From an uncultured Candidatus Saccharibacteria bacterium (GTDB lineage Bacteria; Patescibacteriota; Saccharimonadia; Saccharimonadales; CAZJQT01): a DNA stretch of 64,000 bases. Every line of letters starts with the position of its first letter. Position 1 is the stretch's first letter. The stretch is taken from assembly GCA_964636215.1 (NCBI GenBank), contig CAZWRJ010000002.1, positions 20,967 through 84,966 on the forward strand. Reading direction: 5' to 3'. The notes under the pieces were generated by a model. It worked only from the letters and a program-made list of their open reading frames with translations. It had not been told where the DNA came from and ran no database searches. Below, one piece after another: positions 39,984 through 60,535 of the stretch. Both the position numbers and the translations under genes were made by a program.

Positions 39984-41360
39984 TTATGCTAAAACAATAG
40001 CGTATATAGCCGCTACGCCGGCCACTGTCATTAAACCGACAACTCCCCAGCCGAGTAATTTAGAGATTGGTCCACTAACCCACCGGCCCATAATTTTACG
40101 ATTACCAGCAATTAACACTATCAGAGCCAAAATAACCGGCGCTACTAAACCATTTGCTACAGCGGCATAGATCAAGGCTTTAATGGGATCAAGACCGATA
40201 AAATTGATACTGAGACCAACTAACATAGAGATAATAATCACACCATAAAAAGCATAGGCTTGTTTGAGCGGTCGGTTGAGACCTTCTTTCCAACGAAATG
40301 CTTCTGACAATGCATAGGAACTAGCTCCAGCCAGAACTGGGATGGCTAACATACCTGTCCCAATAATACCGATGGCGAACAGCAAGTATGTAGTATTTCC
40401 AGCAAACGGTCTTAAAGCCTGTGCGGCTTGATCAGCCGAAACGATTTTTGTTACCCCATTGGCGTGCAGTACAGCAGCTCCAGCGGCAATGATAAAGAAC
40501 ATAACTACGTTAGATAGCAGCATACCCGACCAAACATCAATTCGCATTTTCCAGATACTCGCGCGGTCAGAACCGCGTCGGGACTGCAACGACACTTTGC
40601 CTTCTACAATTTCATCCTCTACTTCTTGGGAAGTTTGCCAGAAGAATAGGTAGGGCGAGATTGTGGTACCTAAAATAGCGCAGACTAGCAATATCTCCTC
40701 TTTATCAAAGGATAGATGTGGGACTATAGCCTGATGAAGTACCGCATTCCAGTTAATGTGAGCCAATAAAGCCGAAAAAACGTAAGCAAACAACACTAGT
40801 GCTAACCACTTTAAATACTTAGCATACTTGGCGTAGTTTGAAAAAATCTGTACGACCAAACTAAAAACAGTGAAGACTATAACCAGAAACCCAAAATCCA
40901 GACTGGGTCGAAGTAATTGAGTCGCCTTTGCCATAGCACCCAAGTCAGCACCGATGTTAAAAGCATTAGCCATGAATAGTAACCAGGCACAGGCTAGTAG
41001 GACCGGCCTAGAGAAATGTAATCGGATATTACCAGCCAGTCCCCGTCCAGTAACTAAGCCAATCCGGGCACACATCTCCTGTACTACCGACATCAACGGG
41101 AAGGTGATTATCGACATCCACAGTAACCTAAAACCAAACTGGGCACCGGCTTGGGAGTAAGTAGCTATTCCCGAAGGGTCGTCATCGGATGCGCCTGTGG
41201 TAAGTCCCGGTCCCAAAGTTTGCCAATATTCTTTGGTTTTTTTCAGGACTTTTTTACTTGGAACATGTTTGCGAAACCGGTTGGTAGAGTCCCAGGCCCG
41301 ATCCAAAGCAATGGCCGGTGCTTCGGTCACACGTTCAACTGTTGATTTTCGTTTTTTCAT
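39984..41360 (-). CDS. mntH: NRAMP-family divalent metal (Mn2+/Fe2+) transporter
   Basis: 458 aa with GPGLTTGASDDDPSGIATYSQAGAQFGF, the NRAMP DPGN-like signature, and 11 TM helices. Confidence 0.85.
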   Translation of the reverse strand: MKKRKSTVERVTEAPAIALDRAWDSTNRFRKHVPSKKVLKKTKEYWQTLGPGLTTGASDDDPSGIATYSQAGAQFGFRLLWMSIITFPLMSVVQEMCARIGLVTGRGLAGNIRLHFSRPVLLACAWLLFMANAFNIGADLGAMAKATQLLRPSLDFGFLVIVFTVFSLVVQIFSNYAKYAKYLKWLALVLFAYVFSALLAHINWNAVLHQAIVPHLSFDKEEILLVCAILGTTISPYLFFWQTSQEVEDEIVEGKVSLQSRRGSDRASIWKMRIDVWSGMLLSNVVMFFIIAAGAAVLHANGVTKIVSADQAAQALRPFAGNTTYLLFAIGIIGTGMLAIPVLAGASSYALSEAFRWKEGLNRPLKQAYAFYGVIIISMLVGLSINFIGLDPIKALIYAAVANGLVAPVILALIVLIAGNRKIMGRWVSGPISKLLGWGVVGLMTVAGVAAIYAIVLA

Positions 41361-41439
41361 TAGCCCACTACACTAGTGTTATTGTTTATGCTTAATCTCA
41401 TTATAAGCACAAATCTGGTAGACTCCTAGTGAAAAGTGC

Positions 41440-41469
41440 TTGACACAACGCTTAAGGCTATGTGAGAAT
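41440..41469 (+). promoter_or_regulatory. Near-consensus sigma70-type promoter with no downstream plus-strand CDS
   Basis: TTGACA at 41440-45, an 18-nt spacer, and TGtGAGAAT (an extended -10) at 41461-69. It is back-to-back with the mntH promoter, whose TATAAT lies on the minus strand at 41405-41400. Confidence 0.5.
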
Positions 41470-41475
41470 TGTAGT

Positions 41476-41730
41476 ACTTCGATGTGTAGCTGTATCTGCA
41501 CGCTAGAAGACAAAAAGTTCTAACTAAAAACAATAGGACCGTGTGAGGGTTCTGTTAATTAGGGGGGATGACCAATGTTGGTCAAAATAAAAATAATAAA
41601 TAAGCGGAGGGTATCCCGCGTGGAAGTTAAAATTCGTCGGCCTAAGTGGCAACAATTTCTGACCTACTAGGTTTTTAGTATAGACCTAGGGTTTTATAGA
41701 CGGCCGGGCCAAGAGTCCGGCTTTTGTTTT
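41476..41730 (+). ncRNA. Candidate ~250-nt small RNA (promoter-to-terminator unit, class unknown)
   Basis: Bounded by the promoter above and a GC hairpin plus T-run at 41703-41730. It contains several local hairpins (GTGTAG..CTGCAC; GACCAAtgTTGGTC). Only tiny ORFs are present: a 13-aa MCSCICTLEDKKF at 41482 and an 11-aa ORF at 41568. Confidence 0.35.
41703..41730 (+). terminator. Rho-independent terminator-like hairpin, plus-strand oriented
   Basis: GCCGG(gccaagagt)CCGGC followed by TTTTGTTTT. On the opposite strand no U-run follows the hairpin. Confidence 0.5.
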
Positions 41731-42367
41731 AACTTTTTTGAGCAGCAATTGCCGCGTCTATGAGCTTACTAAATTCTTGAACACTTTGGGGGCTGGGGTC
41801 GAGTTTCTGGTCGTTTAAGAAGAAGGTTGGCGTTGAGTTGACGCTCAATTTTTGGCCGGCCTCAATATCTGCATTAATAACGTCGTTAACCTCACTACTG
41901 GCCATATCCGTTTTAAATTTCTCTACATCAAGGCCTAGTTGATTAGCGTAGCTGATAAAGAAACTATTTGGATCACTGGCAGCGCTCCAAGCTTGTTGAT
42001 TTTCGTAAAGCAGATCATGCATTGGCCAGAACTTGCCTTGCTTGTCGGCGGCCTCCGCGGCCCGGGCGCCCACAAAAGCGTTGTGGTGAACTTGGGTCAG
42101 GGGAAAGTTACGAAACTGGAAGAAAATTTCTTTGTCATACTTCTGTTGGACCTGCTTTAGGATTGGGTAATACTGACCACAAAACGGACACTGGTAGTCA
42201 CCGTACTCCACTAAAGTAATCTGTTTTTGTCCCTTGCCTATGACATGATTGGTTGGCTGCACACCTCCGTTTGAACCAGAACTACCATCTTTATTCTTGG
42301 TGACGAAGAAGATTCCAAAAAACAGTACAATTATTGTCAGTAAAATAACAAAAAATCGATTACTCAA
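41729..42367 (-). CDS. DsbA-family thiol:disulfide oxidoreductase, membrane-anchored
   Basis: 212 aa with a TTG start preceded by AAAGGGG. It has an N-terminal TM helix and a thioredoxin-fold CPFC active site (GDYQCPFCGQY). Confidence 0.8.
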   Translation of the reverse strand: MSNRFFVILLTIIVLFFGIFFVTKNKDGSSGSNGGVQPTNHVIGKGQKQITLVEYGDYQCPFCGQYYPILKQVQQKYDKEIFFQFRNFPLTQVHHNAFVGARAAEAADKQGKFWPMHDLLYENQQAWSAASDPNSFFISYANQLGLDVEKFKTDMASSEVNDVINADIEAGQKLSVNSTPTFFLNDQKLDPSPQSVQEFSKLIDAAIAAQKS

Positions 42368-42407: not shown

Positions 42408-43466
42408 ATGCAAACAGCATTTACAGTCCTTTTGGCTATGCTAACTCTTTTAGCTGTTAGTTTGCAGCGAACCTACGCTACGGTTCCTTTAAAAGAATTA
42501 AAACGTCGGGCCAGAGGTGGTGACGAATTGGCTGCCGGACTTTTAAAAGCCGTAGCCTATGGCCATAGCCTTAGGGCAGTACTGTGGTTCCTGATTGGGC
42601 TGACTAGTGCCGGCTTTTTTGTTCTAGTCAGCTTAACAACACCTACCTGGCTGGCTTTAGTCGCCTCCGTTGTCCTAGTCTGGGCCGGGTTTGTATGGCT
42701 ACCATCATCTCGTATTAGCAAATGGGGGGAGAAATTGGCAGCTTGGGCTGCACCACTACTGGAGAAACTCCTAGCCTACATTAACCCAATCATTGATAGA
42801 ATAGTTGGTTTTATACGTAGTCACCGCCCCTTGCACGTTCACAGTGGACTATATGAGCGGGCTGATCTTTTAGAACTAATCGAACAACAACAAGTTCAGC
42901 CGGATAATCGTATAGAAAAAACTGAGCTAGAGATCGCCAAACACGCTCTGTCTTTTGGCGATCTGACGATTGGTTCACGAATGACTCCTAGGCGGGCAGT
43001 CAAGCAAACTTCAGCCGATGACAGCCTAGGTCCAGTTATTATGGACGAGCTTCACGCCTCCGGTCACTCCCGTTTCCCGGTTTACGAAAAAAACAAAGAC
43101 AACATCGTCGGCACCCTTTATTTACATGATTTGGTACGGTCGAAACACGGTGGCACGGTACGATCCTTAATGAGGCCAACGGTTTATTATTTACACGAAG
43201 ATCAATCGCTGCACGATGCTTTGCAAGCTTTCTTAAAAACCCATCACCATTTATTTGTGGTGGTTAATAGTTTTGAAGAATATGTCGGTATCATCACTAG
43301 TGAAGATATCCTGGAAGCTATTTTGGGTAAACCAATCATTGATGAGTTTGATCAATACGAAGACCTGCGGGCAGTTGCTGGTCGCGCCGCTAAGCAAGAA
43401 CACCAAGAACATACATCGGCTGAGGAAGAAAAGCCTACAGCCGATGAGCCAGAGGTGTTAGAATAG
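42408..43466 (+). CDS. CNNM/DUF21 + CBS-pair domain protein (hemolysin/CorC-type putative Mg2+/Co2+ transporter)
   Basis: 352 aa with four N-terminal TM helices (DUF21) and two CBS motifs (SRMTPRRAV...; HHLFVVVNSFEEYVGIITSEDILEAILG). Confidence 0.75.
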   Translation: MQTAFTVLLAMLTLLAVSLQRTYATVPLKELKRRARGGDELAAGLLKAVAYGHSLRAVLWFLIGLTSAGFFVLVSLTTPTWLALVASVVLVWAGFVWLPSSRISKWGEKLAAWAAPLLEKLLAYINPIIDRIVGFIRSHRPLHVHSGLYERADLLELIEQQQVQPDNRIEKTELEIAKHALSFGDLTIGSRMTPRRAVKQTSADDSLGPVIMDELHASGHSRFPVYEKNKDNIVGTLYLHDLVRSKHGGTVRSLMRPTVYYLHEDQSLHDALQAFLKTHHHLFVVVNSFEEYVGIITSEDILEAILGKPIIDEFDQYEDLRAVAGRAAKQEHQEHTSAEEEKPTADEPEVLE

Positions 43467-60459: not shown

Positions 60460-60535
60460 TGGTGGGGCAGGATGGAATCGAACCATCTACCAAGCGGTTA
60501 TGAGCCGCCTGCTCTGACCGATGAGCTACTGCCCC
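60460..60535 (-). tRNA. tRNA with CAT anticodon (elongator Met or lysidine-modified Ile2), CCA encoded
   Basis: The minus strand reads GGGGCAG TA GCTC ATCGGTCA GAGC A GGCGG CTCATAA CCGCT TGGTA GATGG TTCGATT CCATC CTGCCCC A CCA, a clean cloverleaf. The G1-C72 pair and C29-G41 argue against an initiator tRNA. Confidence 0.9.

Follow-up and report, generated by a model that had tools for sequence, protein, structure and literature searches.

A predicted small-protein gene behind a structured leader in the mntH–dsbA gap of a Saccharibacteria genome

Introduction

The RybA/MntS locus of Escherichia coli is the textbook case of a transcription unit that was first listed as a small RNA (sRNA) and later became a small-protein gene. 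Here we describe a unit with a similar history in a 64,000-nucleotide stretch from an uncultured Candidatus Saccharibacteria bacterium (contig CAZWRJ010000002.1; hereafter the window). The 368-bp gap (41361–41728) between an mntH gene and a gene for a DsbA-like protein, both on the minus strand, carries a plus-strand promoter and terminator, and it had originally been predicted to hold an sRNA of about 250 nt and no protein gene. As is generally known of MntS, the unit is short, intergenic and close to manganese genes, looks like an sRNA and appears to encode a small hydrophilic protein. It differs from MntS in that the peptide has 30–31 residues rather than 42 and no Pfam or NCBIfam match at E ≤ 10, and in that only 6 of 40 loci place it next to mntH.

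Other described systems share further features with the locus. Like the small ribosomal proteins bL36, bS22 and bTHX and the leaders of ribosomal-protein mRNAs, it combines a product of about 30 residues, with a charge of about +9 in the window copy and no autonomous fold, with a strong promoter, a single gene copy and a conserved structured leader. Unlike ribosomal proteins, the peptide has no Pfam, NCBIfam or PDB homology, is encoded outside any ribosomal operon and is nearly neutral in one subfamily. The leaders of E. coli ompA and Bacillus subtilis aprE are mRNA stabilisers that act through a 5'-terminal stem-loop, and the leader described here likewise has a hairpin 1–2 nt from its predicted 5' end, with an A-rich, unstructured stretch and a Shine–Dalgarno (SD) sequence behind it; here, however, GACAAAAA and loop motifs (GYGAG; GC-GAGA-GC) are conserved too, which a plain stabiliser does not need. 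Finally, the dual-function RNAs SgrS/SgrT, RNAIII/hld and SR1/SR1P also join a small open reading frame (ORF) and extensive conserved RNA structure in one short transcript, whereas the clearest selective signature of the present unit lies in the ORF and not in a seed region.

By comparing orthologous loci, we found that the gap very probably holds the mRNA of a 31-residue small protein behind a conserved structured leader, and not a gene-less sRNA.

Evidence for a 31-codon protein-coding gene

We compared the gap by BLASTN with 80 loci containing relatives of MntH, nearly all from Saccharibacteria/Patescibacteria metagenome-assembled genomes (60–78% identity). Similarity was confined to about 41505–41680 and was found in seven loci, upstream of mntH. 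These seven share a TTGACA...TGn-10 promoter, a block made of ACUUC, a hairpin and GAAGACAAAAA, an SD, and an ORF of 29–31 codons with the same ends. Their synonymous differences are near saturation (proportion pS 0.47–0.94), while nonsynonymous differences are far fewer (pN 0.14–0.36; pN/pS 0.18–0.55). Start and stop are conserved, with TAG, TGA and TAA all used at one same position. Orthologous peptides include MPIKIKIINHRSIRVDVKVKRPYWQQFINY and MPVKVKVMPSRRLYVAVQVKRPAWQQFINY, and a GGAGG- or GGGAG-like SD occurs at the equivalent place.

The same pattern was found in the larger comparative set of 95 instances from 82 distinct loci. Over 64 distinct 30-codon sequences, mean entropy at codon positions 1, 2 and 3 was 0.80, 0.48 and 1.44 bits, respectively. 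At the invariant positions (R, P, V, W, Q, F and Y) every synonymous codon is in use; for example, six codons are used for R21, four each for P22 and V17, and two each for Q25, F27 and Y30. Stop usage is similarly mixed (TAA 37, TAG 36, TGA 9), and the antisense frames are not maintained open (40, 3 and 3 of 81). With its fixed start and stop, its SD and this substitution pattern, which is the coding evidence independent of how the loci were gathered (through peptide similarity), the 31-codon ORF is, on comparative grounds, a protein-coding gene under clear purifying selection. The statement that the unit contains no protein gene was therefore wrong.

The original prediction did leave room for a micropeptide gene and named two mini-ORFs, of 13 aa (41483–41524) and 11 aa (41569–41604). 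Both exist, and a small-protein gene is indeed present, but neither mini-ORF is that gene, nor is either conserved. An ATG-initiated ORF of at least 10 codons lies in the first 40 transcript nt in 15 of 78 loci, and an out-of-frame ORF just before the true start in 2 of 78. The G-run that had been described as touching the ATG of the 11-aa ORF is an SD at normal distance from the ATG that begins 6 nt later.

We also considered that the unit is a purely non-coding sRNA, or a dual-function RNA in which the ORF plays a minor part and the main role is to pair with a target or sequester a protein. Some 60% of the transcript's length is not translated, the leader matches the ORF in conservation and has motifs of its own, the entire RNA folds more stably than shuffled sequences (z = −2.77), and convergence with dsbA makes an overlap of 3' ends possible. 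However, purifying selection combined with synonymous drift is not expected of a non-coding RNA, the orthologues have a correctly spaced SD, and no Rfam family was matched, so that we regard such an RNA effector as improbable.

A small-protein family of Saccharibacteria

The family has the consensus MPVKIKVxNSRxxRVEVKVRRPxWQQFLxY, is about 30 aa long and always terminates just after WQxF/Y-x-x-Y/H. A HMMER scan of 1.84 billion representative proteins with the 31-aa query returned three relatives, two of them with wrongly extended N-termini. Profile searches, in which N-extended database members headed the alignments as first row, then yielded 83 and subsequently 127 protein clusters, made up of 29–33-aa proteins or N-extended miscalls. 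These are annotated as “hypothetical” or left unnamed, with one from a “Patescibacteria group bacterium” and a single “Sss1” label; the latter belongs to P0113, whose JGI name “preprotein translocase subunit Sss1” looks like a mis-annotation. The 452-aa protein P0084, considered as a fusion member, proved unrelated, and its sharing of a 90% cluster with P0021 is a clustering artefact. Scanning metagenomes with RPxWQ[QE]F[LI]xY led to 178 stretches confirmed by tblastn, and 80 of them were retrieved. Each of the 82 distinct loci has a single copy of the small gene, and the family has so far been found solely on Saccharibacteria/Patescibacteria-type contigs.

The exact window peptide is not present in a collection of 15 billion proteins. 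Searches of Pfam, NCBIfam, PHROGs and PADLOC at E ≤ 10, and of the PDB by profile, gave nothing or only chance matches of 10 residues. In the literature on small proteins, the ribosome and riboswitches of Saccharibacteria we found no description of the gene or the leader motif. The peptide belongs to no described family; it defines a small-protein family of Saccharibacteria that is new, as is the leader motif.

The peptide is charged and amphipathic, without a transmembrane (TM) segment, hydrophobic stretch, Cys or metal-binding residues. Its pattern of V-K-I-K-V, a turn, V-E-V-K-V-R-R-P and a C-terminal W-Q-Q-F-L-x-Y suggests an amphipathic two-stranded β-hairpin with an aromatic tail, which might fold only on a partner. 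A divergent subfamily (MPIDIRKVPSRAKRIEVEIIPAEWQLYIAH; L035 5493–5585, L170 5001–5093 and L172 3330–3422) shares about 35% identity, is nearly neutral and ends in H instead of Y. Because of this subfamily, basicity does not define the family. Its leader is shorter and has no GACAAAAA, and it keeps the 5' stem with the 3' strand GCGAGAC.

Promoter, transcript ends and terminator

The promoter was as originally described, TTGACA followed after 18 nt by TGtGAGAAT. A match of this kind is not significant alone, since a 2.2-kb stretch contained 3 promoter-like matches against 2.8 expected. Across both strands of the window, 14 sites score at least 10/12, and the extended −10 TG is present in none of them but the site in the gap. 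The promoter is also conserved: 78 orthologous loci have 150 nt or more of sequence ahead of the ATG, and in every one TTGAC is found 115–240 nt upstream of this codon. Anchored on TTGAC, 64 non-redundant leaders give the consensus TTGACA-N16-TG-n-nAaaaT, with ACUUC 6–7 nt later (positions 37–41 counted from the start of TTGACA). We placed the transcription start site (TSS) at the A of this block, by its spacing from the −10 box. The predicted RNA thus runs from about 41476 to about 41730 and is monocistronic. Its predicted length of about 255 nt, together with the conserved promoter and leader, agrees with the independent plus-strand unit of about 250 nt that had been proposed.

A plus-strand terminator against the stop codon of the DsbA gene was likewise borne out, its T-run overlapping that codon. 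In a lenient scan, 62 of 81 orthologous loci have a hairpin and U-run no more than 150 nt past the stop of the small ORF, and about two thirds of these are strong and near the stop. Many of the orthologous terminators consist of an A-run, a hairpin and a U-run, are bidirectional and are common to the convergent DsbA gene; L083, L096, L109, L113 and L123 are examples. In the window the U-run is on the plus-strand side only, so that the DsbA transcript may run antisense into the small gene. In L111, L155 and L165, hairpins of the type GAGACAAACC...GGUUUUUCUC in the first 40 nt past the stop echo the GAGACAAA motif of the leader.

A structured and conserved 5' leader

With a median of 114 nt (range 81–201) across loci and about 100 nt in the window, the predicted 5' untranslated region (UTR) is 35% A. 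Minimum-free-energy folds of its first 40–55 nt give the same architecture in almost all loci: a stem P1 that begins 1–2 nt from the predicted 5' end, a hairpin P2 whose sequence differs greatly between lineages, and an unpaired (A/G)GACAAAAA directly 3' of P1. The stem-loop is more stable than dinucleotide shuffles (mean z = −2.06, 44 non-redundant sequences), native folds average −10.1 kcal/mol as compared to −6.7 kcal/mol when the 5' half of one locus is joined to the 3' half of another, and in 34 of the 44 the plus strand gives the more stable fold of the two strands (Wilcoxon p ~1e-4).

Across related genomes the unit is conserved and P2 covaries, while P1 lacks statistical support. In covariance-model alignments every scored P2 pair shows double changes. 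MAFFT with RNAalifold recovered P1 alone, because the P2 hairpins are too variable for sequence alignment. The covariance models were built from a hand-registered, N-padded seed; they cover mainly the subfamily of the window and drop P2 pairs at insertions. Their significant matches were true leaders only, one of them in the window. A weak match at 625–638 on the minus strand (UACU...AGACAAAAA; 15.8 bits, E ~0.04–0.25) skips the hairpin and is most likely due to chance.

For P1, distant members provide suggestive support, short of proof, as they carry other complementary pairs: UGUC/GACA, CUUUACC/GGUGAG, AUCAU/AUGAU and GUCUCGC/GCGAGAC. The clearest single instance of a compensated P1 is L173 (4800–5100 in CP023991.1, a complete 1.0-Mb genome), where AUCAU/AUGAU is accompanied by a GCGAGAGAG-type P2 tip and by ...ACAAAAAC after P1.

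Downstream of the stem-loop, CAAAAA is present in 58 and GACAAA in 42 of 64 non-redundant UTRs. The motif G[UC]GAG occurs in 50 of the 64, as compared to 13.3 ± 3.1 in shuffles, and is mostly unpaired; in one large subfamily it takes the form GC-GAGA-GC, the GNRA-capped tip of P2. A hairpin around the start codon is predicted in most orthologues, formed as GGC-N3-5-GCC through a Pro codon 2 (CCN) or between GGA of the SD and a Ser codon UCC, and the window retains it with different bases. A further hairpin, GCGGAGGGUAUCCCGC, lies inside the ORF at 41604–41619 among variable turn codons; a scan flagged it as terminator-like on the minus strand, and it is not conserved in the orthologues read.

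The features of the unit and its flanking genes are given in Table 1.

Table 1. Predicted features of the unit and neighbouring genes, in window coordinates
Feature	Position	Strand	Description
Nramp/MntH gene	39984–41360	−	Pfam Nramp E = 4.4e-82; divergent from the small gene
Sigma-70-type promoter	41440–41469	+	−35 TTGACA 41440–41445, 18-nt spacer, extended −10 TGtGAGAAT 41461–41469
Predicted TSS	41476	+	A of ACUUC, 7 nt past the −10 box; placed by spacing
5'-terminal stem-loop	41477–41509	+	P1 CUUC 41477–80/GAAG 41506–09; P2 UGUGUAG 41483–89/CUGCACG 41496–502
Single-stranded ACAAAAA (41510–16), then A-rich linker	41510–41535	+	A...AAAAA columns invariant (60 leaders)
Second hairpin	41536–41552	+	GGACC-GUGUGAG-GGUUC with GUGAG loop motif; predicted fold
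Shine–Dalgarno run	41562–41568	+	GGGGGGA, 7 nt ahead of ATG 41575; normal spacing
Start-codon hairpin	41570–41583	+	GACCA-AUGU-UGGUC, AUG in the loop; predicted fold; window codon 2 is UUG
Small-protein gene	41575–41670	+	31 codons and TAG (41668–41670); MLVKIKIINKRRVSRVEVKIRRPKWQQFLTY, net charge about +9
Stop-codon hairpin	41667–41689	+	CUAGG...CCUAG, then GGUUUUAU; flagged as terminator-like by scan
Intrinsic terminator	41702–41731	+	GGCCGGGCCAAGAGTCCGGCT, 8-bp stem with 6 G-C pairs, then TTTGTTTT tail (given also as UUUUGUUUU)
DsbA-like thioredoxin-fold gene	41729–42367	−	Thioredoxin_4 2.6e-25, DSBA 8.7e-18; convergent, conserved neighbour
CBS-pair protein gene, CNNM/CorC/GldE/PaeA-like	42408–43466	+	Conserved neighbour

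Searches for known RNAs

Searching all of Rfam 15 at E ≤ 10 with both strands of the gap gave best local scores of 14–22 bits against thresholds of 46–80, all at E ≥ 0.55 and from unrelated families, in line with the original statement that signature motifs of tmRNA, RNase P RNA, signal recognition particle RNA and the manganese riboswitch are absent; 6S RNA, a likeness to which had been proposed, was not matched either. At gathering thresholds nothing relevant to the gap was found in the whole window. ARAGORN detected no tmRNA, and there is no tRNA within the gap; the sole Rfam or ARAGORN match across the window is a tRNA-Met (CAU) at 60460–60535 on the minus strand.

The gap is upstream of mntH, a gene that is under riboswitch control in some bacteria, and its minus strand is also more stable than shuffles (z = −2.45). 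The element might accordingly be read as a minus-strand 5' UTR or riboswitch of mntH. Neither the yybP-ykoY manganese riboswitch nor any other Rfam riboswitch model matched either strand of the gap at E ≤ 10, however, and the promoter, SD, ORF and U-tailed terminator are all on the plus strand, which is the more stable one. Moreover, the element travels with the DsbA and CBS genes and not with mntH. This synteny effectively refutes an mntH leader, which we consider almost certainly wrong.

A conserved neighbourhood with a variable upstream slot

Of 61 loci, 40 have the DsbA-like gene convergent with the small ORF and no more than 400 nt away, and 45 have the CBS-pair gene within 1.5 kb downstream, followed by a class II aminoacyl-tRNA synthetase (aaRS) gene. 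The closest NCBIfam likenesses of the CBS-pair protein are GldE, CorC and PaeA (CNNM type), all under the family cut-offs. This block of small ORF, DsbA, CBS and aaRS persists in the neutral subfamily at about 35% identity and in the complete 1.0-Mb genome, with DsbA convergent there too.

The upstream flank is more variable. A Kef-type exchanger (Na_H_Exchanger and TrkA_N) is upstream in 22 of 40 loci, and between it and the small gene there is a slot (39984–41440 in the window, with equivalents in L081–L087 and L170–L173) that looks like a synteny breakpoint bordering the conserved block. MntH, found in either orientation, occupies the divergent position in just 6 of the 40; elsewhere the place 5' of the small gene is taken by DUF1003, an AAA_33 kinase-like gene, CorA with a hypothetical gene, CTP_transf_like or PIG-L. 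The link to mntH and manganese that the original prediction implied is thus not conserved, and an MntS analogue, one of the candidates considered, was weakened once L081–L083 and later loci showed other genes in the slot.

The conserved block could reflect a functional tie to the CBS/CNNM-like protein or, equally, the general collinearity of small genomes. If the tie were real, the small protein might act in the cytoplasm on a nearby cation transporter, as its partner or regulator; the CBS protein, MntH and the Kef-type exchanger would be the candidates. Such a role would resemble that of MntS, with a leader that senses a cation or polyamine. Cation transporters are abundant nearby (Kef-type, Nramp and the CBS-pair protein, and CorA in L170), the CBS gene is at the distance given above in most loci and in four comes straight after the small ORF in the same orientation with no strong terminator, and the block is kept at low peptide identity despite the variable upstream flank. 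On the other hand, mntH adjacency is rare and its orientation varies, the peptide has no hydrophobic segment or metal-binding residues, no riboswitch model was matched on either strand, and the collinearity of Saccharibacterial genomes makes synteny weak evidence. We consider a transporter partner unlikely.

DsbA is missing in four loci of one subclade (L084 5001–6204, L120, L133 and L136), where the small ORF and the CBS gene share a strand, the former some 105 nt ahead of the latter. As there is no strong terminator in these four, the two genes may be co-transcribed there. This arrangement is also what would be expected if the ORF were a regulatory leader or arrest peptide for the downstream gene, and the short peptide with its invariant C-terminal R-R-P-x-W-Q-x-F/Y-x-x-Y could similarly be read as a precursor of a ribosomally synthesised and post-translationally modified peptide (RiPP) or as a type I toxin. 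However, the small ORF of the window, like most others, is followed by a terminator and an oppositely oriented gene, which leaves nothing to attenuate; only 4 of 61 loci have the CBS gene immediately downstream in the same orientation. The neighbourhoods read (DsbA, CBS, aaRS and transporters) contain no radical SAM, YcaO or lanthipeptide enzyme, and the peptide is hydrophilic, lacks a TM segment and Cys, and has no PADLOC or PHROG match. We consider a leader peptide, RiPP precursor or toxin very improbable.

Possible function of the peptide and its leader

For the small-protein mRNA, which we favour, the following model can be proposed. A strong sigma-70-type promoter would drive the monocistronic mRNA, which would end at the intrinsic terminator. 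The peptide may be a β-hairpin with a C-terminal aromatic tail that folds on a partner, either RNA or the ribosome or a protein, and the leader would set its level. The 5'-terminal hairpin probably protects the mRNA from 5'-end-dependent decay. The conserved GACAAAAA, the GYGAG loops and the AUG hairpin exceed what a stabiliser needs, so that contacts with a trans-acting factor or tertiary folding are plausible. Together they may form a site for feedback or trans-acting translational control, and the factor might be the peptide itself; alternatively, the motifs may serve tertiary folding.

Several observations weigh against parts of this reading. The transcription start and the 3' end of the unit are both inferred positions, and because the loci were gathered through peptide similarity, an open frame is partly expected by construction. 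In the leader, permutation of P1 partners among 61 leaders was not significant (135/1000), and P1 is invariant within the subfamily of the window; this invariance is uninformative for or against pairing. Ensemble folds leave the SD and AUG about 50% unpaired on average, so that no clear on/off translational switch is evident. AlphaFold2, run with a 48-sequence alignment, gave a mean predicted local distance difference test (pLDDT) of 59 and no secondary structure. The near-neutral subfamily weakens an RNA- or ribosome-binding role. Neither the peptide nor the RNA is homologous to a described family, so that the function of the peptide is a guess.

That the peptide associates with RNA or the ribosome and feeds back on the leader of its own mRNA is a tentative proposal for its role, with the odds against it. 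The probability that remains beyond this role, the transporter partner and the RNA effector goes to roles that we could not name. A more far-reaching idea, which as a whole we think doubtful, is that the leader belongs to a hitherto undescribed class of sensing RNAs, riboswitch-like or acting by protein feedback and made up of the 5' stem-loop, GACAAAAA and GNRA/GYGAG hairpins, and that the peptide is also a lineage-specific component of the core machinery of Saccharibacteria, for example a ribosome-associated protein or a regulatory subunit of a CNNM/CorC-type transporter.

Implications

The observation behind the original prediction was accurate; its reading is corrected here to an overlooked 31-codon gene that has manganese genes nearby only incidentally. 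In the tiny genomes of Saccharibacteria and other Patescibacteria, genes of no known function make up a large share, and genes of about 30 codons fall at or under the cut-offs of gene callers. Orphan promoter–terminator units in such genomes should be checked for conserved small ORFs before they are called sRNAs.

As the small gene is single-copy and widely kept, with a strong promoter, an elaborate leader and a fixed position, it likely does something important. Its leader adds a candidate cis-regulatory RNA motif to a phylum from which, to our knowledge, few have been described. If the leader were indeed a new sensing RNA and the peptide a part of the core machinery, the locus would be a core gene of the candidate phyla radiation that had so far escaped notice.

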